54,712 bases of DNA from Elusimicrobiota bacterium (GTDB lineage: Bacteria; Elusimicrobiota; Elusimicrobia; Elusimicrobiales; UBA9959): positions 1-54,712 of the forward strand of contig DAIENX010000102.1 of NCBI GenBank assembly GCA_027340875.1, given 5' to 3'. The position numbers and the translations under genes were made by a program. Shown here piece after piece: positions 17,420-37,590 of this stretch (its first letter is position 1; each line of letters starts with the position of its first letter). Below the pieces are notes generated by a model. That model ran no database searches. It was not told where the DNA came from and was given only the letters and a program-made list of their open reading frames with translations.

Positions 17420-17534
17420 ATCCCCGTCAGCTCTCCCCTTGGCGTCCGGGAGTATATTATCAAAAATTTGCCGGGCAGATAGCGCCGCCCCGACAAGCCC
17501 TTGTCGGGGAGCTCTGTTAAGATATTTCAGGGCG

Positions 17535-18434: not shown

Positions 18435-21400
18435 ATGGGGAAAGCTAAAGCGGCCGGCAAGGCCGCGGAGAAGCCCGTGCTTGAGGGGGACAAGACCCTC
18501 AGGTTCCCGCATGCCCTGCTGATAAGCGCCTCCGCCGGCTCCGGCAAGACCTATACCCTCACCCAGCGCTACGTGCAGTTCCTGCTTTCGGAGAAAGTGC
18601 CGGGCAACGACCTTTCCGGCATACTGGCGGTCACCTTCACCAACAACGCGGCCAAGGAGATGAAGGCCCGCATACTCTCCTGGTTGAAGGACCTCGCCCT
18701 CGGCCGCGACGAGGAGAAGCTTAAAGAGACCATGGAGCTGGTCTCGCTGCCCCGCGCGGAGATAGTCAAGCGCGCGGGCGTCCTTGTCGAGCGCATCATA
18801 GACAACTATTCCGATTTCCACATCCAGACCATAGACAGCTTCCTCGCCCGCGTGATGGCGGCCTCGGTGGACGAGCTGAAGCTGCCGCTCAAGGCCGAGA
18901 TCACCATGGCCTACGACGTGCTGATAGACCTCGCCTTATACAGCATGTTCTCGCGCATAGGCAAGGCGGACCTGCCGGCGGAGACGGTGGACAAGTTCCT
19001 CGCCGTCCTGCCCAAGAGCACGGCCTACCCGTGGAACCCGGCCCAGCGCATAAAAGAGAACTTCAACAGCTTCCTCAACCAGGAGGGCAAGACGGCTGGG
19101 GAGCTGGCCGCGGCACCGGTGAACTACGAGGATCTGCTCAAGGCCAAGTTCCGCGCGGTGCATAAGCACGCTGAAGGCCTCATAAAGCATTTCGGCAAGG
19201 AATTCGTTAAGGAGAAGGCCGCCGCGGCCATGGAGGCTGGCAATATCACGGATTTCCTCGCTTCCTACAGCTTCAAGTTCGGCATATTCAACGGCGTTAA
19301 AAAGGGCAAGTTCCCGCCCGGCTGGGAAAAGGACATCGCCCACTTGAGCGACCTGGTCATAGAGCTCACGGAGTTGAACGCCGTGGCCTATTACCACCCG
19401 TACGTCGGTATATACGACAGGTTCAAGGCCGAGCTGGAACGCGTAAAGCGCGGCAAGACGGACGTCATCCACATAAACGACATAGCCAAAAAGCTCGCGG
19501 CCTATATAAACGCTAAGAACGTGCCCGAGATCTACCTTAAGCTGGGCGAGCGCATCTCGCACTTCCTTATAGACGAGTTCCAGGACACCAACCGCCTGCA
19601 GTGGGACGTGCTGCGCCCGCTGGTGGAGGAGGGCATCTCCAAGACGGGCTCGCTGTTCGTGGTGGGGGACATCAAGCAGGCCATCTACATGTTCAGGAAC
19701 GCGGACTACAAGATAATGCGCGACCTGCTGGACAAGGCCGAGGGCAAGAAGGAGACGGCCGACAATCTTTCGCTCGAGCCTTTGGGGGGCGAGCTCAAGT
19801 ACATCAACCTGCCGGTGAACTACCGCTCGGACGGCGAGGTGCTCGGCTACGTGGACAAGCTCTTCAAGGAGAAGCTTAAAGGCTCGCCGCTGGTGGGCGA
19901 GGATATTACGGAGCTCACTTCTTATTCGCAGCATGTGCAGGCGGCCAGGGTTAAGGACGGCTACGTTAAGACCACGGTGCTCGAGGCCGAGGACCTGGAC
20001 GGGCCGGACGGCAAGCGGGACTGGCTGGTGGGGGCGGTGAAGGACGCGCGCAAGCGGCACCGCTACGGGGATATAGCGATCCTCGTGGGCAAGAACAAGC
20101 GCATAGAGCCGGTGGTGGAATGGCTGACGGCCGAGGGCATACCGGTGGCGTCGCTGAGTTCGCTGGACATCCGCAAGCGCAAGGTGGTGGCGGAGCTTAT
20201 CAGCTACCTGAGGTTCCTGGAGACGCCTTCGGACGATCTTTCCTTCGCTGACTTCATCACGGGCGATATTTTCACGCGGCTTACGGGGTTGAAGCGCGGG
20301 GAGCTGCTGGACTTCATATTCAAGGCGCGGCAGGCGGACAAGGGCGGCCTGCTGTACGCGGCTTTCCGCAACGACGCTAAATATAAGGAATACTGGGACC
20401 GCCACCTGGACGAGGTGTTCCGCAAGGTGGGCTACCTGCCGCTATACGAGCTGGCGGCCCTTGTGTACGCGAACCTCAAGCTCTTCGCCAATTTCCCGGA
20501 GGAGCAGGCTTTCCTGTCGCGGTTTCTTGAGGCGGTGAGCGCCCTTGAGGCGGAGGGCGTTACGAGCCCGCGGTCTTTTATTGAGTACGCGGCTGGCGAG
20601 GACGAGGACAAGGCCAAGGTTTTCGCCATCGCGCTGCCGGAGTATATAGACGCGGTGCGGGTGATGACTTTCCACAAGGCGAAGGGGCTGGGCTTTCCTG
20701 TGGTGATAAACCTGCTCTACGAGGAGCGGGGCCAGAGCGACCCTATGTATTTCGAGGAACGGGACGGGGCTATAAACGTTTATCACATTACTAAGGACGC
20801 TGCGGCGGAGTCCGCCAGGCTGCGGCCTATTTACGAGGCGAAGAAGGCGGACGAGGCTGTGCAGGACCTGAACGTGCTGTACGTTATCAGTACGCGGGCT
20901 AAGAACGAGCTTTATAATCTTGTGGTGCGTAAGGCGAGGAAGACGGAGGCCAAGGAGCCTAAGCTGCTGGATATTTTCGAGGATTACGAGGCGGGCAAGC
21001 CGCCCAGCGTGAAGCCGGAGGCGCGTGTTACGGCGCCGCCGGTGGTTATTGCGGGGGTGGCGGGCAGGCCGGAGGCGCGGTTCGAGGCGGCTAAGCCTAC
21101 TTACGGGAGTTTCTTTGAGACGGCTGAGGGCGAGCTGGTGCATGGTATGCTGGCGCGGTTTGTGGAGCTGCCGGGGGATCTTGAGGGGGAGCTCGGGCGG
21201 GCTTTTGATGAGCTGGCGCCGGGGTATCCGTTCGTCTTTAATAAGGAAAAGATAATTAAGGGGCTGTTGGGTTTTCTTAGGGGCGGGGAGGCGGCGGGGT
21301 TGTTCGCGGCTAAGGCTGGGCGCGAGGTGCTTATTGAGGCGGAGTTTATCGATAAGGGCGGCTCGCTGTTCAGGATGGACCGCGTTATTGTGGATAGTGA

Positions 21401-21557
21401 CGCCGTTACTGTTGTGGACTTTAAGACGGGGGCGGAGAATACGGAGAAATACACGGCCCAGATGAAGAACTACCTGGGCATTGTAGGCGAGGTCTACGGC
21501 AAGCCGGTCAAAGGCCTGCTAGCGTATGTGGATTTGGGGAAAATCGTAATAATTTAA
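18435..21557 (+). CDS. addA: AddA/RecB-like UvrD helicase with C-terminal PD-(D/E)xK nuclease
   Basis: ASAGSGKT, TFTNNAA, IDEFQDT, VGDIKQAIY.FR, NYRS, TFHKAKGL; nuclease RMDRV...VDFKTG. Confidence 0.85.
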   Translation: MGKAKAAGKAAEKPVLEGDKTLRFPHALLISASAGSGKTYTLTQRYVQFLLSEKVPGNDLSGILAVTFTNNAAKEMKARILSWLKDLALGRDEEKLKETMELVSLPRAEIVKRAGVLVERIIDNYSDFHIQTIDSFLARVMAASVDELKLPLKAEITMAYDVLIDLALYSMFSRIGKADLPAETVDKFLAVLPKSTAYPWNPAQRIKENFNSFLNQEGKTAGELAAAPVNYEDLLKAKFRAVHKHAEGLIKHFGKEFVKEKAAAAMEAGNITDFLASYSFKFGIFNGVKKGKFPPGWEKDIAHLSDLVIELTELNAVAYYHPYVGIYDRFKAELERVKRGKTDVIHINDIAKKLAAYINAKNVPEIYLKLGERISHFLIDEFQDTNRLQWDVLRPLVEEGISKTGSLFVVGDIKQAIYMFRNADYKIMRDLLDKAEGKKETADNLSLEPLGGELKYINLPVNYRSDGEVLGYVDKLFKEKLKGSPLVGEDITELTSYSQHVQAARVKDGYVKTTVLEAEDLDGPDGKRDWLVGAVKDARKRHRYGDIAILVGKNKRIEPVVEWLTAEGIPVASLSSLDIRKRKVVAELISYLRFLETPSDDLSFADFITGDIFTRLTGLKRGELLDFIFKARQADKGGLLYAAFRNDAKYKEYWDRHLDEVFRKVGYLPLYELAALVYANLKLFANFPEEQAFLSRFLEAVSALEAEGVTSPRSFIEYAAGEDEDKAKVFAIALPEYIDAVRVMTFHKAKGLGFPVVINLLYEERGQSDPMYFEERDGAINVYHITKDAAAESARLRPIYEAKKADEAVQDLNVLYVISTRAKNELYNLVVRKARKTEAKEPKLLDIFEDYEAGKPPSVKPEARVTAPPVVIAGVAGRPEARFEAAKPTYGSFFETAEGELVHGMLARFVELPGDLEGELGRAFDELAPGYPFVFNKEKIIKGLLGFLRGGEAAGLFAAKAGREVLIEAEFIDKGGSLFRMDRVIVDSDAVTVVDFKTGAENTEKYTAQMKNYLGIVGEVYGKPVKGLLAYVDLGKIVII

Positions 21558-25712: not shown

Positions 25713-26532
25713 CGACGACATTAGGCGGCTGGTCGAAAAAGGCTATGCAGTCGCTTTTGATGGTGGCCACCTAATCGTGCGTGACATTCCCTATCTGGAT
25801 GCAGAACTAAAGCTCCAGATTGGGGCTATTGTTGCAGAGCTTGTCTTTGTCGACAAAACGCATGTCAAACAGAACGACCATCAGATATTTTTTGCGGGTT
25901 CCGCTCCGTTTAACTTGGATGGTAAGCCAATCCCAAATCTTGCCGGAGGGCCTACAAAACGTGTGCTAGGTGATGCGAGTAAGGATGTGGTAGTGCAGCG
26001 CTCTTTCTCGAACAAGCCGAAAGACACAGGCAAGTTTGTTGACTTCTTCGATAAAATAGAAAACTATGTCAGCATAATATCTGGTCCGGCTATTGAGTTA
26101 CACAACCCAAAGCCATATCCATACACATTCCGTGCAGTTACGGAAATTATCCCTGATTCAATCTTCAAATTCCACGACACTTTAACAAGTCGGGCAGGAA
26201 TTGGGGACTTGTCTGGTAAGCTGAAGGATGATGTTATCGCGGTTATAGGTTTGGGCGGAACAGGTGCTTACTTGCTCGATTTTTTGATTAAGACCCCGGT
26301 GAGGGAAATCCGCGCCTTCGACCTCGATCCGCTTTATGTGCATAATGCATTTCGCTCGCCTGGTAAATTAGATCCCGCTGACTTGGGCAAATCTAAAGCG
26401 GAAGTATATCATGCGAGGTATGATAATTTTCGGAATGGACTGATTGTCACTCCGAAGTTTATTGATGCTGAATGTGGTGCTGATATGGACGGGGTGACAT
26501 TTAGGGAATTGGGGTCAGGTCTTGATTCTTGA
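25687..26532 (+). pseudogene. DUF6791/E2-like + ThiF (E1) fusion, truncated at about 26503 by the island repeat
   Basis: N-terminal HLIVRDIPY...FSNKP; ThiF IAVIGLGGTG, HNAFRSPG, KAEV; the last codons (ELGSGLDS*) are repeat-derived. Confidence 0.75.
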
Positions 26533-30403: not shown

Positions 30404-31321
30404 ATGGCCTTATTCCTGATATTGCTTATCTTCCTGACGGCGCCGCCGGCGAGCGCGTCTTTTAACGCTGCGGCGAAAGGCACCTCTTCCGCCGGTTTCC
30501 TCACCCTTGGCTCCGGGGCGAGGGGGGTGGCGATGGGCGGGGCCTATTCTGCCGTTGTCGATAACGCCGAAGCCATGTTCTGGAATCCAGCGGCGTTGCT
30601 GCGCGTGAAGAACAGGTCCGTCACCTTCATGCATGCGGCATATATAGCTTCGACCTATTATGACTACGGGGCGTATGTACAGAATTTGGGCGATGAAGAT
30701 GCTTTCGGTGTCGGGTTGCAATATTTTTCTTCAGGCGACATGATGGAAACCGATGTGAACGGCGTCGATCTGGGGAAGTTTTCCCCTGATGATTACTCTT
30801 TGTCGTTCGGCTACGCTATGCTGGTGCGCGATATTAAACTTGGGTTCGTTCTCAAGTATGTGCATTCCACGATACTTTCTACCGCTAAGACGGTTGCCTC
30901 GGATATAGGTGTAATGTTCCCGCCTGTTTACGATGGGAAAGTGAGATTTGCGGTAGTGGGTTCGAATATCGGGGGAGGGCTGAAATATGAAGAGAAGACG
31001 GAAGCGCTGCCAGGGATAGTGAAGCTTGGCGGAGTGTATACAAGCAATGGCTTCGGATTATATAGTCTGGATGTCGGATTTCCGCAAGATGACTCCCCGT
31101 ATTTAGCGATGGGATATGAATATCCCCTACGAATGAGTGATCCTTGGAGACTGCTGGTCAGGTGTGGATTCAACTCTCAGACTGTAGGTGATATCAAAGG
31201 ATTTACCGGCGCTTCTTTCGGCTTCGGGGTGGGTTACGATAAGTACGTTTTTGATTATGCTTTTTCCCCGTTGGGGGATCTTGGGGCCGCTCACCGTATG
31301 GCCGTTTCCGTAAAGTTCTGA
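30404..31321 (+). CDS. PorV/PorQ-family outer-membrane beta-barrel
   Basis: FLTLGSGARGVAMGGAY, FWNPAAL, C-terminal DYAF.P.GDLG..HR...VKF. Confidence 0.8.
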   Translation: MALFLILLIFLTAPPASASFNAAAKGTSSAGFLTLGSGARGVAMGGAYSAVVDNAEAMFWNPAALLRVKNRSVTFMHAAYIASTYYDYGAYVQNLGDEDAFGVGLQYFSSGDMMETDVNGVDLGKFSPDDYSLSFGYAMLVRDIKLGFVLKYVHSTILSTAKTVASDIGVMFPPVYDGKVRFAVVGSNIGGGLKYEEKTEALPGIVKLGGVYTSNGFGLYSLDVGFPQDDSPYLAMGYEYPLRMSDPWRLLVRCGFNSQTVGDIKGFTGASFGFGVGYDKYVFDYAFSPLGDLGAAHRMAVSVKF

Positions 31322-31377
31322 AAAGATTTATCCACTTCCGCCTCCTCCAGGTGGCCTACCATCAGCCGATTGGCCGC

Positions 31378-31492
31378 GGAATCGTGGTCAGGTCTTGAAT
31401 CTTGACATCGAAGCCGCCTGCGGGAGAATTGGGGTCAGGTCTTGATTCTTGACATCGAAGCCGCCGGGGAAAATGCCCGGCGGTTTTGTTTT
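31378..31492 (+). repeat. Island repeat tandem copies c1 (truncated) and c2
   Basis: ggtcaggtcttgaatcttgacatcgaagccgcc followed by gaattggggtcaggtcttgattcttgacatcgaagccgccgggg... Confidence 0.9.
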
Positions 31493-31549
31493 GTCCCGAC
31501 AGGCCGTTGACGGGGTGGGCTGCTATGCTATCTGTGGGAAGGGGGGCTT

Positions 31550-32056
31550 ATGTCCAAGGACGTTATCCCGCAGGAAGCGCTGGAGTTGAAGATACTGCTT
31601 GTTCGCGGCCATAAGGTGATGCTGGACCGCGACCTGGCCGCGCTGTACGGGGTGGAAACGCGGGTTCTGAATCAGGCTGTTCGCCGCAATATCAGGCGAT
31701 TCCCGAAAGACTTTATGTTCTCGTTGACCCGGGAAGAGATCGGGAACTTATCACAATTTGTGACAAGTTCCCGGATAAAGCACGCCCCTAATGTGTTCGC
31801 ATTCACGGAACATGGCATAGCGATGCTTTCCAGCATATTGAAGAGCGAACGGGCCGTTCAGGTTAATATCCATATAGTGCGTGCTTTCGTGAGGCTGCGC
31901 GGTCTTCTGGCCTCGCATCGGGACCTTGCCCGCAGGTTGGACGAGCTGGAGCGGAAATACGACTCACAGTTCAAGAGCGTGTTCGACGCCATCAAGGCGC
32001 TGATGGAGCCGCCTGACGGCCCTGAACCGAAGAGGATCACTGGCTTCAAGCCGTAG
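31550..32056 (+). CDS. ORF6N-domain DNA-binding protein, paralog 1
   Basis: RGHKVMLDRDLAALYGVET..LNQAVRRN..RFP.DFMF.L, FTEHGIAMLSS.L.S. Confidence 0.9.
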   Translation: MSKDVIPQEALELKILLVRGHKVMLDRDLAALYGVETRVLNQAVRRNIRRFPKDFMFSLTREEIGNLSQFVTSSRIKHAPNVFAFTEHGIAMLSSILKSERAVQVNIHIVRAFVRLRGLLASHRDLARRLDELERKYDSQFKSVFDAIKALMEPPDGPEPKRITGFKP

Positions 32057-32156
32057 CTGTATCCGAAGCCGCCGGGGGAAAACCCCGGCGGTTTTGTTTT
32101 GTCCCGACAGGCCCTTGTCGGCGTCGCATGCTATGTTATTTATGGGAAGGGAGGGT

Positions 32157-32237
32157 ATGTCGAAGGATATTATCCCGCAGGAAGTATTGGAATCCAAGAT
32201 ACTGCTTATACGCGGCCACAGGGTGATGCTGGACCGA
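32157..32237 (+). pseudogene. Truncated ORF6N paralog (first 27 codons)
   Basis: MSKDIIPQEVLESKILLIRGHRVMLDR followed immediately by the island repeat; promoter and RBS intact. Confidence 0.85.
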
Positions 32238-32413
32238 GGAATTGGGGTCAGGTCTTGATTCTTGACATCGGGGACTTGGGGTCAGGTCTTGAATCTTGAC
32301 ATCGAAGCCGCCGGGGGAAAAGCCCGGCGGTTTTGGTTTTTGTAGAATGGAATTGGGGTCAGGTCTTGAAACCTGACATCGAAGCCGCCGGGGAAGCCCG
32401 GCGGTTTTGTTTT
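32238..32413 (+). repeat. Island repeat tandem copies d1, d2, d3
   Basis: Three ttggggtcaggtcttga...tgacatcg units at about 32238, 32272 and 32349. Confidence 0.9.
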
Positions 32414-32465
32414 AAAAAGACAGCAGCAGTCTGCAGACTGGAGAACTTTGCTTTAATTTGTGGCC

Positions 32466-33923
32466 CTATGGCCGCTTGTTAGGTGTCAGTTCAACTGTAA
32501 TGGAGTCGGCTTCGCTGTAAATACGTCCGGGTCTTGCCGCTTTGAAAGATACTTTTTCTCCATTGATCTGCAATTCCCGGAAAGATACCCCTTGCGGGGA
32601 TGGGGATGTCTCTTTTCCGTCAACCAGAATCTTCACTTGTCCTTCCCCGATGTTGCCTTCGATCAGAGTCGGATATATAACCGCTCCGCGCAAATCGCGG
32701 ATGGGTTTTATCTTTAGATTCTTTTTCATAACAGACGTGTTCCTGAAAATCAGGCGCAGCGTTGTGTCCCGGAGAAACTCCATTGTGGAGACCGAAGGGT
32801 AAAATACCCCGTCGTTTGTTTTTACCGGTTGTTTGTCGCCTGAAAAACCTTCATCCGTAAAAGTCCTGGCATCCCAGCTTATCAAGGACAGCTTTCCACG
32901 TCCAGCCGAAAAACTTTTTGCGTCGGCTGCCGCAGTTCTGCTCATGGCGGCATTAACGTTTTCAAAGGAGGCAACAAGTGCCTGATAGTTGTACTTTTTA
33001 TAAGTCTTATCGATCTGGGCGCTGTCTGGCAGGCCGGTCCTGTATTGTTCCAGCGCTAACTGATAGATTGGTGTGCCTGCTTCTAGTCTCGACTTCCAGG
33101 GAGCGCGCAATCTGTCTAACAGGCGCATTTGAGCCGCGCCGGTTAAGTAGTATTTAACTTTATCGTTCTGTTTCTCCACCGGCATTAACAGCATATTTGC
33201 CAGAAACGTATCCGGCGATGTGGTGATACTGCCGGCTTTTCCGGCTGGTTCCGAGTATTTCAGCTCTACATATTGGGCGGACCCTTCCAGTCTCTCGCTT
33301 TGATCTTCCCAGGCCGTTGCCCCGGTATCTTGACGTTTAAGACGATCTCGTCTTGCCGCCAGAAAGAGCCTGAAGTCGTCCTGCCAGCTATCGGGAGAAA
33401 TTAATGCTTTTGCAAGCAACAACTCCTCAATGTAGAAAGCCGCGTGTTGCGCCGCGCTTGACGTTGCGGGTTTTGCTGCCGGCACGGCCGCAAACCTGTT
33501 GTGCTGGAAAGAATGGAATGTCTCATGGGAAACAAGATTCAATGTGCTCTCCGGCGTGGCGCCCAACAGACGCCTGACATAAAACACTGGAACACCATCA
33601 TACACATATTCCGACAAAAAAACGGATTCAGCCGGCCGTTGGAATCGGGGGTTCTTGTAAACGGGGAGAGCGTTACCCTTGTCTATGCGTGTAAATCCTT
33701 TCGTGGGTTTCGGGTAATTTATGAGGTATCCGGCACCGGTTTCATCAGCCAGTAAGATGGGCCTTTCAAGAGGTGAATAACCCGGCCAGACCGGGACAGC
33801 ATTTTTATGCTTATCGATGAGTTTGTCAACAACATCTTCTGCCGCCGAATGACGCTGTTCGCCGGCAGAGAGGATGTTTAAGCTGAGCAGCGCGATGGGC
33901 AGAAAAACAGAGGATTTAATCAT
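32466..33923 (-). CDS. Exported protein with HExxH motif (putative zinc metallopeptidase-like)
   Basis: Start MIKSSVFLPIALL; SHETFHSFQ and downstream EGSAQYVE. Confidence 0.65.
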   Translation of the reverse strand: MIKSSVFLPIALLSLNILSAGEQRHSAAEDVVDKLIDKHKNAVPVWPGYSPLERPILLADETGAGYLINYPKPTKGFTRIDKGNALPVYKNPRFQRPAESVFLSEYVYDGVPVFYVRRLLGATPESTLNLVSHETFHSFQHNRFAAVPAAKPATSSAAQHAAFYIEELLLAKALISPDSWQDDFRLFLAARRDRLKRQDTGATAWEDQSERLEGSAQYVELKYSEPAGKAGSITTSPDTFLANMLLMPVEKQNDKVKYYLTGAAQMRLLDRLRAPWKSRLEAGTPIYQLALEQYRTGLPDSAQIDKTYKKYNYQALVASFENVNAAMSRTAAADAKSFSAGRGKLSLISWDARTFTDEGFSGDKQPVKTNDGVFYPSVSTMEFLRDTTLRLIFRNTSVMKKNLKIKPIRDLRGAVIYPTLIEGNIGEGQVKILVDGKETSPSPQGVSFRELQINGEKVSFKAARPGRIYSEADSITVELTPNKRP

Positions 33924-34482
33924 AACAATGCTGGATACACTCGCATTTGTGTGTGTAGACAATATGGTTCCAACAGGTATAGATATACCTGCAGCTGTCC
34001 GGAACAAGCCCGGTAGGATCACAAACCCAATCCCACTTACAGTCTTCTACCCATTGTTCATCATCATCGCAATGGAATAACTGTGGACCGCTCCAGTTTT
34101 CATAAGAATGTCGATTCGCCGCATCCGTCAGGAACATCCTGGGCGGGATGACCATCCCGCGCAACTCCTGTGCGGAAATCTGATTGGCGGGAGAACCGTG
34201 ATAACAGTATAAGTTCGGCGTAGTAAAACAATTGAAAGAATCCGTGATTGTCGCCGTGCCTTTTTTTATTGATACTACCACTTCGGCTGAGTGGCGAAGA
34301 GATGTTTCCGACCCAGTTGACACCGGCACCGCCGGGCATGCATTAGGGAAAGTCTGTGGTGTTTCCAGCAGCAAGCGTTCCGCTTGTGCTAACTCTACTT
34401 CAAAACTTGTCTTGTTGTTGCCGGCAAAAGTGCTGCCAACAGAAGTAGCGAATATCGTAAGGCAGAGCGCAATGATTTTCAT
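33916..34482 (-). CDS. Secreted Cys-rich hypothetical protein
   Basis: Signal peptide MKIIALCL...TFA; Cys/Trp-rich C-terminus; RBS-like ggggga. Confidence 0.65.
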   Translation of the reverse strand: MKIIALCLTIFATSVGSTFAGNNKTSFEVELAQAERLLLETPQTFPNACPAVPVSTGSETSLRHSAEVVVSIKKGTATITDSFNCFTTPNLYCYHGSPANQISAQELRGMVIPPRMFLTDAANRHSYENWSGPQLFHCDDDEQWVEDCKWDWVCDPTGLVPDSCRYIYTCWNHIVYTHKCECIQHCYD

Positions 34483-34717
34483 TTAGTTCTTCCCCCCATA
34501 AAAAAACGGGAAAGCGGGTTAATTCGCTTTCCCTGGATACACCGGATTAAGGTCCGGTCGTGGATACTTCGGGGCCAATTCCCCGAATTACAAGGAGACT
34601 ACAATTAAAGTTTAGCTGATAGTGGTTACGTGTGGAAGTGTCTTTGGACCTATTGGGTTCTGGGCCCTCGTTTTCCCGCAGTTGAATTCTCCCATTACTG
34701 GCGCAATTTCTTCCGGG

Positions 34718-34856
34718 GGAATTGGGGTCAGGTCTTGATTCTTGACATCGAAGCCGCCGGAAGGTTCCGGCGGTTTTGTTTTTAAATTAACATAATCCAC
34801 CAAAAAGGTAGCTGCTACCTTTTTCAACCCTTAAAAGGCAGCAGGAGCCTTTTTTG
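34718..34856 (+). repeat. Island repeat copy e with extra palindrome
   Basis: Near-identical to copy a plus a 30-bp insert containing aaaaaggtagc-t-gctaccttttt. Confidence 0.9.
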
Positions 34857-34913
34857 ACCACGACAGGCGGTTGTCGGGGTGCTCTGATATGCTATCAGTA
34901 GGAAGGGGGGCTT

Positions 34914-35432
34914 ATGTCCAAAGACGTTATCCCGCAGGAAGCGCTGGAGTCGAAGATACTGCTTATTCGCGGCCACAGGGTAATGCTGGACCGAGACCTG
35001 GCCGCGCTGTACGGGGTTGAGACCCGCATGTTGAATCAGGCGGTGAAGCGGAACAGTAAGCGGTTTCCGGAAGATTTTGTGTTCAGATTGACTGCAGCGG
35101 AGACTTCGGTTTGGGTATCACAATTTGTGATACCCAATTCAAAGATCAAAAAAGGCTTAAGAATAAGTCCGCTTGCCTTTACCGAGAACGGCGTAGCCAT
35201 GCTCTCGAGCGTTCTTAACAGCCCCCGTGCCATAGCGGTGAACATCCAGATAATGCGCATGTTCACGCGGCTGCGGGGGCTGCTGGCCTCTCACCGCGAT
35301 CTGGCGCGCAGGATGGATGAGCTGGAGAAGAAATACGACGCGCAGTTCAAGAGCGTCTTCGACGCGATAAGGGCGCTGATGGAGCCGCCGGATGGCCCGG
35401 AGCCTAAGAGGATAACCGGCTTCAAGCCGTAA
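34914..35432 (+). CDS. ORF6N-domain DNA-binding protein, paralog 2
   Basis: Same ORF6N motifs; core WVSQFVIPN. Confidence 0.9.
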   Translation: MSKDVIPQEALESKILLIRGHRVMLDRDLAALYGVETRMLNQAVKRNSKRFPEDFVFRLTAAETSVWVSQFVIPNSKIKKGLRISPLAFTENGVAMLSSVLNSPRAIAVNIQIMRMFTRLRGLLASHRDLARRMDELEKKYDAQFKSVFDAIRALMEPPDGPEPKRITGFKP

Positions 35433-35512
35433 TAAAAACCCGGCGGTTTTGTTTTGTCCCGACAGGCGGTTGTCGGGGTCTCCTGCTATGCTATCTGTGG
35501 GAAGGGGGGCTT

Positions 35513-36022
35513 ATGTCCAAAGACGTTATCCCGCAGGAAGTGCTGGAGTCGAAGATACTGCTTGTTCGCGGCCACAGGGTGATGCTCGACCGTGACCTGG
35601 GCGCGCTGTACGGGGTCGGAACCCGTGATCTGAATAAAGCGGTTTCACGTAATATGGAGCGGTTCCCGGAGGACTTCATGTTCCGCCTGGACGGGTCAGA
35701 GCTGGAAAACTTGATGTTCCAATTTGGAACATCAAGTTGGGGCGGGACCAGAAAGCCCCCGAGGGTGTTTACCGAACATGGGATATTGATGCTGTCCTCG
35801 GTGCTTAAAAGCCGGCGCGCCATAGCGGTGAACATCCAGATAATGCGTACTTTCACGCGGTTGCGCGGGCTGCTGGCCTCAAGTAGGGATCTTGCCCGCA
35901 AGGTGGCCGAGCTCGAGAAGAAATACGACGCGCAGTTCAAGAGCGTCTTCGACGCGATAAGGGCGCTGATGGAGCCGCCTGACGGCCCGGAGCCCAAGAA
36001 GATAACCGGCTTCAAACCATAA
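35513..36022 (+). CDS. ORF6N-domain DNA-binding protein, paralog 3
   Basis: Same ORF6N motifs; core LMFQFGTSS. Confidence 0.9.
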   Translation: MSKDVIPQEVLESKILLVRGHRVMLDRDLGALYGVGTRDLNKAVSRNMERFPEDFMFRLDGSELENLMFQFGTSSWGGTRKPPRVFTEHGILMLSSVLKSRRAIAVNIQIMRTFTRLRGLLASSRDLARKVAELEKKYDAQFKSVFDAIRALMEPPDGPEPKKITGFKP

Positions 36023-36049
36023 TAAAACCCCGGCGGTTTTGTTTTTGGG

Positions 36050-36227
36050 GAACATATCACATTTTGTGATATGTTCAAGGTCGCAATTTGCGGCCTTGAA
36101 ACTTGAAGTGCCAATTTGGCACCTCAAACTGGGTGGATAACTGGGTATCGCAAAATGCGATACCTGATTTGGCGGTCACAAACTGTGACCTCAAACCGAA
36201 TCTTTAAGGTTCCAAATTGGAACTTTA
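36050..36227 (+). repeat. Array of six palindromes, each resembling an ORF6N variable-core coding fragment
   Basis: Palindromes at 36050-36076, 36074-36100, 36103-36127, 36144-36164, 36174-36190 and 36205-36227, all centred on CA-nnn-TG. Confidence 0.85.
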
Positions 36228-36288
36228 GAAACTCGACATCCCCTTGGCGGGTTGGTCTGCCAGGATATAAGCGGGAAAGGGGGGCGAT

Positions 36289-36798
36289 ATGAAAGAGGTT
36301 ATATCCCTGGAGATGATCGAGCAAAAGATATACTTTATTCGGGGACACAGGGTCATGCTGGATAGTGATCTGGCGGAAATGTACGAGGTGCCGACAGGGC
36401 ATCTTAATAGGGCGGTTATCCGAAATATCGAAAGTTTCCCGTCTGATTTTATGTTCCAGCTTTCGGAGCGGGAATACCGGTCTTTAAGATGCCGATCTGG
36501 CATCTTAAAGCGCGGGACTCATTCCAAGTATCTGCCGCGTGTTTTCATGGAGCAGGGAGTCGGCATGCTGTCCAGTGTGCTCAAGAGCAAACGTGCCCGG
36601 CAGGTGAATATCCATATCATGCGGGCTTTCGTTAAGCTTCGCCGGCTTCTTAATACTCACAAGGAACTGTCCCGAAAGCTGGAAGAATTGGAAAAGAAAT
36701 ATGACGCCCAGTTCAAGAGCGTGTTCGACGCCATCAAGGCGCTGATGGAGCCGCCGGATGGCCCGGAGCCCAAGAAGATAACCGGCTTCAAGCCGTAA
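36289..36798 (+). CDS. ORF6N-domain DNA-binding protein, paralog 4
   Basis: Same ORF6N motifs; core LRCRSGILK. Confidence 0.9.
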   Translation: MKEVISLEMIEQKIYFIRGHRVMLDSDLAEMYEVPTGHLNRAVIRNIESFPSDFMFQLSEREYRSLRCRSGILKRGTHSKYLPRVFMEQGVGMLSSVLKSKRARQVNIHIMRAFVKLRRLLNTHKELSRKLEELEKKYDAQFKSVFDAIKALMEPPDGPEPKKITGFKP

Positions 36799-36950
36799 TA
36801 AAAACCCGGCGGCTTTGTTTTGTCCCGACAGTCGGTTGTCGGGTTAGCCTGCTATGCTATCGATGAGGGGAAGGTGCATATCGGGTCTTGAAAATAGGTC
36901 TTGCGCATACAGTATATATCATGTAGACTATTTTCAGGGAAGGGGGCGGG

Positions 36951-37289
36951 ATGTACTGCGTGGAGTTTTGGCGGGACGCGGGAGGGGGCTGTCCCGCCAG
37001 GGACTTCCTGGACGGCCTGCCGGTGAAGGTCAGGGCGAAGACGGCCAAGTGGCTGCAGCTCTTGCAGGAGGGGGGACCGGACCTGAAGAGGCCGTACGCG
37101 GACATGCTTGCGGACGGCATACGGGAGCTGAGGCTGTCGTTCGGGCGTCTGGAGGTCAGGCTGCTCTACTTCATAGAAGGCAGAGAGATAGTGCTGACCA
37201 ACGGGTTCCTCAAGAAGACGCGCCATACGCCGACAGGCGAGATAGAGCGGGCGAGAAGGAGCAGGGCCGTCTGGCTGGCGGCGAGGTGA
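36951..37289 (+). CDS. RelE/ParE-superfamily (Gp49/HigB-like) toxin
   Basis: G.CP..DFL..L, L.RPYAD.L.DGIRELR, RLLYF, LTNGFLKKT..TP..EI; promoter TTGCGC-17-TAGACT within an inverted repeat. Confidence 0.85.
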   Translation: MYCVEFWRDAGGGCPARDFLDGLPVKVRAKTAKWLQLLQEGGPDLKRPYADMLADGIRELRLSFGRLEVRLLYFIEGREIVLTNGFLKKTRHTPTGEIERARRSRAVWLAAR

Positions 37290-37293
37290 GGTT

Positions 37294-37590
37294 ATGAAAA
37301 AAAAGAAACAGACGCTGAACGGCTGGCTTAAGGGCGAACTGAAGAATAAAGAGTTCAGGAAAGCCTTTGATGCTGAGGATATCCGCGCGCGGATGGCGCT
37401 CATGATAGCCGAGAGGCGCCAGAACCTTCACGTCAGCCAGGCGGAGCTGGCGCGCCGGGTGCATACCAAGCAGCAGGTCATTTCCGACATCGAAACGCTG
37501 CGGCATCCCAATATCACCATCCTGACGCTGGACAGGATAGCCAGGGCGCTCAACAGCGACCTGCGCATCTCGCTACGCCCTATACATTAA
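37294..37590 (+). CDS. XRE HTH antitoxin (HigA-like)
   Basis: SQAELARRVHTKQQVISDIE; directly downstream of the toxin. Confidence 0.85.
   Translation: MKKKKQTLNGWLKGELKNKEFRKAFDAEDIRARMALMIAERRQNLHVSQAELARRVHTKQQVISDIETLRHPNITILTLDRIARALNSDLRISLRPIH

Follow-up and report, generated by a model that had tools for sequence, protein, structure and literature searches.

Sites that lie within the gene of the protein that reads them are known from parS, embedded in spo0J/parB, and from the ori iterons of lambda, which lie within gene O. The lambdoid operators OR and OL place several palindromic sites for helix-turn-helix dimers at a promoter, with specificity classes set by helix residues, and REP/BIME elements, which go with RAYT transposases, are tandem extragenic palindromes present in many near-identical dispersed copies. 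In the pilS/pilE and vls systems, silent cassettes hundreds of bases long share flanking homology with an expression site. To our knowledge, few small "anti-repressor" or candidate defence genes are as common in bacteria and phages as those encoding ORF6N proteins, and no DNA target of these proteins is known to have been described. The protein BstA is described, in the part of its report drawn on here, as possessing a KilA-N-like DNA-binding domain and as being suppressed by a cognate, variant-specific element in its own locus, aba (Owen et al. 2021, PMC8585504). Here, we describe a 54,712-nucleotide stretch of an Elusimicrobiota bacterium (assembly GCA_027340875.1, contig DAIENX010000102.1), referred to as the window, in which six differing palindromes are strung together between two ORF6N genes. 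Comparison of sequences across the family leads us to propose that these six units are probably binding sites of ORF6N proteins. The window is contig C69 of a 2.8-Mb assembly that comprises 112 contigs, has a G+C content of 63.6%, and is 92% complete.

The array occupies positions 36050-36229, non-coding DNA between a terminator-like hairpin that follows ORF6N paralog 3 (P3) and a promoter block that precedes paralog 4 (P4). The hairpin (36024..36047, plus strand) carries a T-run and stands immediately ahead of the first unit; a terminator scan of 35950-36320 returned 0 sites and did not call it. Positions k are counted from the palindrome centre, the class of a site is written as k8k7-k5k4, and cognate sites are filtered as 13+1+13 palindromes with C at k3, A at k2, T at k6, and symmetry to k13. 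The units, which are assigned to no strand, are separated by gaps of 0-12 bases, so that they abut. Unit a (36050..36076, centre 36063, class TA-CA) is a perfect 12+3+12 palindrome, unit b (36074..36100, centre 36087, class GG-CG) is symmetric at 9/10 outer positions, and unit c (36102..36128, centre 36115, class AG/GG-GC) has arms at 36103-36114/36116-36127 (92%). Unit d (36141..36167, centre 36154, class TA-CG) is a perfect 9+3+9 palindrome with arms at 36144-36152/36156-36164 and is symmetric to k10, unit e (36169..36195, centre 36182, class GG-CA) has arms at 36169-36180/36184-36195 (83%), and unit f (36203..36229, centre 36216, class GG/AG-TC) has arms at 36197-36215/36217-36235 (79%). 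The filter retains units a, c, e, and f; unit b falls outside it through a C in the right arm at the otherwise near-invariant T of k6, and unit d through symmetry that reaches k10 only. Scored over ten positions, the symmetry of units a to f is 10, 9, 8, 7, 8, and 8.

Chance does not readily produce such a cluster. The 183-base stretch holds five palindromes with arms of at least 9 bases and at most one mismatch, while 2000 base shuffles of it gave none in 1974 cases, one in 26, and two in 0. A scan of the genome in 31,001 segments of 183 bases found only two with three or more palindromes, which are expected to be the array itself. Assemblies of four public runs from one study (X1-X4), compared as contigs, yielded a 753-base contig identical to 35986-36738 without an insertion or deletion, and the best-matching of these runs may be the source sample of the genome assembly. 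The array is thus unchanged in four run assemblies and is not an assembly artefact, a possibility that the first-pass annotation of the window had raised. That annotation had placed six consecutive palindromes between P3 and P4, and all are present there; the six peptides it quoted translate exactly as written, in frames 0, 0, 1, 1, 2, and 0 and hence not in one frame, and the four in-gene palindromes it used for comparison are real. Its statements that no unit is identical to an expressed allele and that the array retains no other ORF6N sequence hold within this genome. A CRISPR array was considered and ruled out, as the units are different palindromes rather than identical direct repeats with unique spacers.

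Four intact ORF6N genes lie in the window, all on the plus strand. Paralog 1 (P1, 31550..32056) has the helix ETRVLNQAVRRN and an in-gene palindrome at 31741-31773 of class TA-CA; paralog 2 (P2, 34914..35432) has the helix ETRMLNQAVKRN and a palindrome at 35111-35137, also of class TA-CA. P3 (35513..36022; helix GTRDLNKAVSRN) contains a perfect 15+1+15 palindrome at 35708-35738 of class TG-TC, and P4 (36289..36798; helix PTGHLNRAVIRN) contains one at 36482-36510 of class GA-GC. A fifth copy at 32157-32240 is broken off after approximately 28 codons, and two further copies lie outside the window, an intact one on contig C80 and one truncated at its 3' end on contig C68. P1-P4 match the Pfam family ORF6N (PF10543) with 100.6-108.2 bits (E 5e-31 to 6e-29; curated cut-off 27.8 bits) and, over nearly the whole protein, the PADLOC candidate defence family PDC-S05 (profile PDLC04856, E 1e-52 to 1e-54). 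The genes are mosaics, with 83-100% identity over the 5' 90 bases and the last 120 bases but only 40-73% over the middle portion that holds the helix and the site, a pattern that looks like homogenised ends flanking a diversifying specificity module.

In every full-length ORF6N copy of the genome, a palindrome 25-31 bases long occupies one shared codon position, and this feature extends across the family. In a gene set drawn from this genome, 30 loci from 40 relatives, and 80 loci from more than 15 phyla with 46-64% protein identity, a palindrome stands at the aligned position in 104/111 full-length genes. It is centred on the first base of codon 71 (P3 numbering) and encodes residues 65-76. 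Positions k2 to k13 are symmetric in 83-104 of the 104 genes, although k4, k5, k7, k8, k10, k11, and k13 vary freely, and the paired base changes often alter the encoded amino acids (e.g., S-Q-F-V, C-Q-F-G, and F-Q-F-G). The centre of the palindrome reads CAA-TTT, codons that genome-wide make up 6.3% of Gln codons and 10.7% of Phe codons, respectively. The retention of symmetry despite amino acid changes, together with the rare centre codons, indicates that the constraint acts on the DNA. The palindrome was also found in 79 of the 80 loci fetched from among 175 ORF6N relatives on viral contigs. Our searches of the ORF6N and PDC-S05 literature found no published account of the in-gene palindrome, of a residue-to-base code, or of mixed arrays.

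Several further observations concern these genes. In the run contigs, depth rises from approximately 12 to 50-67 exactly over the P3 palindrome (35706-35756), with loose ends that read as other ORF6N genes, indicating that different organisms of the community share an identical 31-base core in otherwise different genes. Sites with arms of differing class, such as a left arm with TC and a right arm with GC, occur in L036, L041, the second gene of L033, and the upstream unit of L019, and these hybrids may be specificity-switch intermediates or sites of mixed dimers. The truncated C68 copy (C68:10785-11090) loses similarity after approximately residue 95. Besides its in-gene site, another that matches the class of this copy lies at C68:10745-10771, between the promoter block and the start codon, and an additional imperfect site lies at C68:3841. 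P1-P4 and their relatives end in a tail motif of the form basic-I-(x)-G-F (e.g., 36775-36795), in which G166 and F167 are invariant in 22 sequences, and this tail may be a docking peptide for some partner.

The palindrome can be related to a particular helix of the protein. An AlphaFold model with a predicted local distance difference test score (pLDDT) of 76.6 shows a winged helix-turn-helix-like N-terminal domain, with helices at 26-33 and 37-46, and a long helix at 101-153. A profile search of PDB found no relative, its sole match being a de novo protein (E 0.52), and Foldseek returned nothing from PDB at E ≤0.001, the best hit being Ski/Dachshund at E 0.09. Weak fold likeness (Z 4.3-6.3) was seen to Dachshund/Ski, the N-terminal domain of baculovirus Orf22, and Mbp1; the best score of a wide structure search with VIA was Z 6.3, which is under the level that exceeds a common arrangement. 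When alignment columns were compared with half-site bases by mutual information, residue 42 stood out, with 1.31 bits for k4 and 1.15 for k5; it sits on helix 37-46, outside the residues 65-76 that the palindrome itself encodes. Residue 38 co-varies with k7 and k8.

These associations amount to a simple residue-to-base rule that was carried over to a held-out set of 114 distinct genes from viral and metagenome loci unused in finding it. Glutamine at residue 42 goes with CA at k5k4 in 34/39 discovery genes and 57/62 held-out genes, E42 with CG (24/24 and 35/37), and K42 with TC (17/17 and 3/3). R42 goes with GC in 19/24 discovery genes, 3 more having AC, and in 4/12 held-out genes, plus 7 with one GC arm. 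Lysine at residue 38, which goes with GG at k8k7 in the discovery set, did so in 60/70 held-out cases. Overall, the exact rule was correct in 99/114 held-out genes. A tree from which the helix and palindrome columns had been left out required at least 47 changes of residue 42 and at least 39 of the site class, and among independent pairs on supported branches the site never moves opposite to residue 42; R/GC pairs move in the same direction in 5.9/6 (p ~0.03), the other classes having too few supported pairs to reach 0.05. Because the rule holds in held-out genes, the palindromes are predicted to be the binding sites of the proteins, and each ORF6N protein very probably reads the palindrome in its own gene as its own site.

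The same data bear on the idea that the hairpins of the array act in the transcript, as a terminator, an insulator, or processed small RNAs. The array does follow the weak P3 terminator and would fold into six hairpins, and single units stand in the presumed 5' leaders of the C68 copy and L002. Against this, the covariation of helix and bases points to recognition of double-stranded DNA, and the mismatches within units are not consistently G-U on one strand, with T-G in unit b and A-C in unit c and P1. No T-runs follow the hairpins, and a search of 31000-37500 against Rfam (E up to 1) gave nothing above threshold on the array, the best match being rivX with 19.6 bits against a cut-off of 100. 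We therefore regard an RNA-level role as very improbable.

Read with the code, the six units are predicted to represent six different specificities, three of which have a match among the resident proteins. Unit a (TA-CA) would be read by a protein with R38/Q42, as in P1; unit b (GG-CG) by K38/E42, as in the C80 copy; and unit e (GG-CA) by K38/Q42, as in the truncated C68 paralog. The predicted readers of unit c (AG/GG-GC), K38/R42, of unit d (TA-CG), E42 with a residue other than K at 38, and of unit f (GG/AG-TC), K38/K42, have no match in the assembly. The outer flank of unit c is as in the P3 in-gene site and that of unit d as in P2. Half-site comparisons that include the outer flank place unit a close to P1 (12/15 positions in common, a closeness reached by 2/99 background sites) and unit d close to P2 (11/15; 3/99), and unit b has 12/15 positions in common with C68 and 11/15 with C80. 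Unit f equals the in-gene site of P4 orthologs in sister species at 13.5/15 positions (L011, L007, and L013), while P4 itself has R42 and a GA-GC site unlike the unit-f-type site of those orthologs. Pairing by overall similarity gives a-P1, b-C68, c-P3, d-P2, e-C80, and f-P4. A scan of the whole genome found such sites in three settings, within ORF6N genes, ahead of the C68 copy, and in the array, and nowhere else, suggesting that ORF6N proteins have no wider regulon in this genome.

The resemblance of the units to gene cores had led the first-pass annotation to suggest a library of specificity segments, in which the units would serve as donor cassettes copied into ORF6N genes to change their core. 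Some units do equal cores of sister species, and joints in the run contigs show ORF6N cores of the community like units c, e, and a/b, a weak indication with sides of 23-27 bases; the small alphabet of sites makes matches to foreign cores expected in any case. By the code, specificity lies in helix residues 38 and 42, approximately 90 bases upstream of the palindrome, so that the core is not sufficient; exchange of just the 27-bp core would leave a protein and its site mismatched, and such mismatched pairs are rare. The units have no flanking homology, and the 44 open reading frames of the window scanned against Pfam include no recombinase, transposase, or HUH family, and a reverse transcriptase (RVT_1) is absent from the whole genome. 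Nor did the search for array units as in-gene cores in reads succeed, as the four runs held no variant or joint involving the resident genes. The swapping library is thus unsupported, and we consider a silent repertoire highly unlikely.

The position of the array points instead to the promoter of P4. A block of the form CGACA-N6-TGTCGG-N10-TANNNT precedes P1, P2, P3, and the truncated copy, approximately 20 bases before the ribosome-binding site, and a degenerate version (CGACA-N6-TGGCGG-N10-CAGGAT; 36234..36266, plus strand) is recognizable by conservation as the putative promoter block of P4. The genome contains 19 such blocks, at 17491, 18396, 32105, 34861, 35460, and 36826 in the window plus 13 on other contigs. 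The block is also present ahead of a UvrD-like helicase gene (18435-21554) and a Gp49/HTH toxin-antitoxin-like pair (36951-37590). Measured from unit centres to the CGACA of the P4 block, unit f lies at 18 bases, unit e at 52, and the next unit at 80.

Related arrangements occur in other species. Within the genus, 8/29 distinct genes with a promoter block have upstream units; a unit of the "TTTAAG...CTTAAA" type stands 18-19 bases before CGACA in five loci, and a unit at 50-54 bases is present in four. The sister species G005 has a related three-unit array ahead of a P1-type gene, with centres 19, 53, and approximately 81 bases before the same block, and this array is 78% identical to that of the window over 106 bases. 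The upstream unit of G046 is cognate to the P4 ortholog that follows, which is not the case for the upstream units of G000 and G018. Units at the position of unit f differ between species on both arms (GGTTCC/GGAACC versus GATGCC/GGCATC).

Mixed clusters extend beyond the genus. Of the first 112 loci, 30 have sites outside the genes, for the most part 22-130 bases before the start and almost always of a class unlike the gene's own. A pattern scan of metagenome contigs raised the set to at least 346 distinct loci, and the counts that follow refer to the matches listed: at least 91 single extragenic sites, 38 doubles, 11 triples, and 3 quadruples, the six-unit array of the window being the largest cluster. 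Among the 50 clusters of two or more sites, 29 lie upstream of an ORF6N gene and 5 downstream; for the other 16, the fetched piece lacks an ORF6N gene, although in 10 of them the flank is too short for a judgement. Arrays are all mixed, with 0/99 within-array pairs sharing k4-k10, and 4/76 units equal the nearest in-gene site; avoidance of duplicate units is not significant (0 identical pairs versus 2.8 expected, P ~0.06, with non-independent pairs). The expectation that palindrome arrays would be found next to ORF6N genes of other genomes is thus borne out by mixed clusters of two to four sites, mostly upstream. On viral contigs, 135 loci with three CAAWTTG cores in a row, among matches listed, include five with two palindromes and no ORF6N-type array. 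Of 14 loci with a two-site pattern, the four inspected each proved to hold a single palindrome, which resembled a terminator in two cases and was a perfect family site, lacking a nearby ORF6N gene, in the other two. The ORF6N-type sites at L454:1496-1522 and L457:1496-1522 are perfect or nearly so and have no ORF6N gene up to 1.5 kb away; they may represent stand-alone sites of phages.

Taken together, we favor the reading that the first-pass annotation had offered as a third possibility, an array of binding sites that controls P4, because the promoter-proximal position is kept between species, G046 holds a cognate upstream copy, and clusters are biased to upstream positions; the units are copies of a helix-read site, and similar arrays exist elsewhere. 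In this mechanism, ORF6N proteins would read a 27-bp (13+1+13) site through the second helix of their helix-turn-helix, presumably as dimers held together by the long C-terminal helix, as suggested by the symmetry of the site and the presence of that helix. Each ORF6N gene would carry the cognate site of its protein, and six sites of six predicted specificities would be strung directly upstream of the P4 promoter. Resident proteins of the P1, C80, and C68 types, along with three types not encoded in the assembly, could then act on P4 and its neighbourhood. We infer physical binding, dimerisation, and the effect on transcription alike from sequence, and we judge the chances of a cis-acting operator or docking cluster for several ORF6N proteins ahead of P4 to be about even; that the units regulate P4 in particular is likewise a balanced proposition.

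A number of findings weigh against this operator or docking role. A sigma-70 scan of 35950-36320 found no promoter, and the block is taken as one from its conservation. The spacings between unit centres (24, 28, 39, 28, and 34 bases) show no helical phasing. The array units range from 7 to 10 out of 10 in symmetry, with a near-invariant position broken in unit b, which would fit weak constraint or decay, and extragenic sites as a group are less symmetric (mean 8.35/10, n=43) than in-gene sites (9.29, n=105). In an assembly that is 92% complete, units c, d, and f have no resident protein that matches them at residues 38/42. A one-to-one match of units to paralogs is marginal, with a total of 67.75 versus 62.7 +/- 3.0 for random family sites, a value reached in 287/5000 draws, or in 120/5000 with a background from other phyla. 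Finally, two relatives with a single ORF6N gene, G018 (97% complete) and G024 (100%), carry well-formed upstream sites without a resident cognate, indicating that cross-control among co-resident paralogs is not the general rule. This last pattern fits sites meant for incoming relatives, or aba-like elements.

Part of this evidence would also be expected if the units were evolutionary debris, that is, largely functionless former operators or copies of in-gene sites stranded by a change of specificity or by gene replacement through recombination at the conserved ends. Exchange of the mosaic middle of P1-P4 would strand upstream units, and unit f would be a case in point: it is the in-gene site of P4 orthologs (L011, L007, L013, and G046), one of which, G046, holds a cognate copy at the same position, while P4 now has R42 and GA-GC. 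In this weak sense, the earlier suggestion that the array is a record of captured alleles may hold for unit f. The lower symmetry of extragenic sites and the degeneracy of units b, d, and e point the same way, as do the asymmetric changes between the G005 and G000 arrays, which are only 78% identical over 106 bases. Random deletion, however, would not reduce six relics to the length of a site and leave gaps of 0-12 bases, perfect symmetry (10/10) is seen in unit a and in many heterologous units elsewhere, distances from the promoter block are conserved across species, and the units at the f position differ between species on both arms. Decay as the whole explanation therefore appears rather unlikely to us.

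The non-cognate sites raise another alternative, modelled on BstA/aba, in which a cognate DNA site switches off an ORF6N/PDC-S05 defence protein, acting on protein activity rather than on transcription of P4. The in-gene site would protect the element bearing the gene, and a mixed array, acting as a "key-ring," would protect the carrier DNA from several specificities or titrate the proteins. The match of P1-P4 to PDC-S05 agrees with such a role; according to the portion of a preprint considered here, a representative of PDC-S05 cut the plating of T7 and T5 approximately 1000-fold (10.1101/2024.09.26.614923), but that representative, which protected E. coli B, had a RhuM domain and may differ from the 170-residue type. 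The presence of heterologous sites in genomes without a cognate resident protein, the clusters downstream of genes (5/50 among matches listed), the two viral contigs with perfect sites and no ORF6N gene within 1.5 kb, and the frequency of the family on viral contigs (175 relatives) would all be consistent with immunity or decoy sites. A pure decoy, however, would have no need of the placement that most clusters show, within approximately 100 bases upstream of a start codon and at set distances from the promoter block. Among the 44 open reading frames of the window scanned against Pfam there are no phage genes, the 135 viral-contig loci listed include no three-site array of this kind, and aba, as far as the account used here describes it, has terminal direct repeats and no palindrome. 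We regard this alternative as doubtful, of about the same standing as debris.

The surroundings of the array contain other features. A repeat of approximately 45 bases, which starts with GGGGTCAGGTCTTGA and ends as a terminator hairpin, is present in seven copies on the contig and 15 in the genome; copies at 31431, 32244, 32278, 32355, and 34724, and also at 26511 and 26849, include those that interrupt the fifth ORF6N gene. On the minus strand, a 2'-dG-II purine riboswitch aptamer (RF03165) was detected at 34528-34598 with a score of 85.8 bits (cut-off 60; E 6e-22), upstream of two minus-strand open reading frames without a Pfam family (33916-34482 and 32466-34022).

The locus and the family data together supply a 27-bp target palindrome and a four-letter rule at one helix residue, which could serve to predict the DNA that members of a very large protein family recognize, and perhaps to re-target them. 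The array itself is a naturally occurring construct that sets six specificities in a row before one gene. What is new here is an array that is the largest found, is fully mixed, and is mapped onto the set of paralogs of its own genome, along with its relatives in sister species, which keep fixed distances to the promoter, and an out-of-sample test of the code. If the units are operators, they would describe a cross-regulatory network among paralogs and incoming relatives; if they are aba-like, mixed arrays would represent a novel means by which mobile DNA or hosts deal with several defence proteins simultaneously. More speculatively, ORF6N/PDC-S05 proteins may be a programmable self/non-self family whose mixed arrays, as collections of sister and foreign sites, either confer on their carrier DNA an aba-like immunity to several ORF6N defence proteins or couple a resident defence gene to the sensing of incoming ORF6N-bearing phages, a tentative proposal that we hold at low confidence.

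Among the systems described, the lambdoid operators resemble the array in placing palindromes at a promoter, but theirs are several sites for one repressor, whereas the ORF6N array has six predicted readers, of which three are missing from the genome. Like parS and the lambda iterons, the in-gene palindrome is a cis site embedded in the coding sequence of its reader and is inherited with it. Unlike those sites, which serve segregation or replication and are conserved within species, the ORF6N site and helix diversify together, and sites of other specificities are gathered beside an ORF6N gene. The units differ from REP/BIME elements in that all of them are different and occur only at ORF6N loci, and the sole Y1 transposase of the genome sits on a contig other than the window. 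With pilS and vls, the array has in common unexpressed variants of a gene segment beside expressed genes, but its units are 27 bp long, have no flanks, and represent a segment that is not the sole determinant of specificity. The statement of the first-pass annotation that no system of this form is described has to be qualified by BstA/aba, a described analogue in which a DNA-binding protein of the KilA-N/ORF6N kind has a short cognate element in its own locus, each BstA variant has its own element, and there is a link to phage defence (PMC8585504). The two differ in the form and place of the element. In the part of that account used here, aba is a 63-bp element that overlaps the gene start and has terminal direct CCCGCC repeats, BstA is prophage-borne and approximately twice as long as ORF6N proteins, and mixed aba arrays are not among the arrangements described, whereas the ORF6N site is a 27-bp palindrome in the middle of the gene that is read by a residue-to-base rule.

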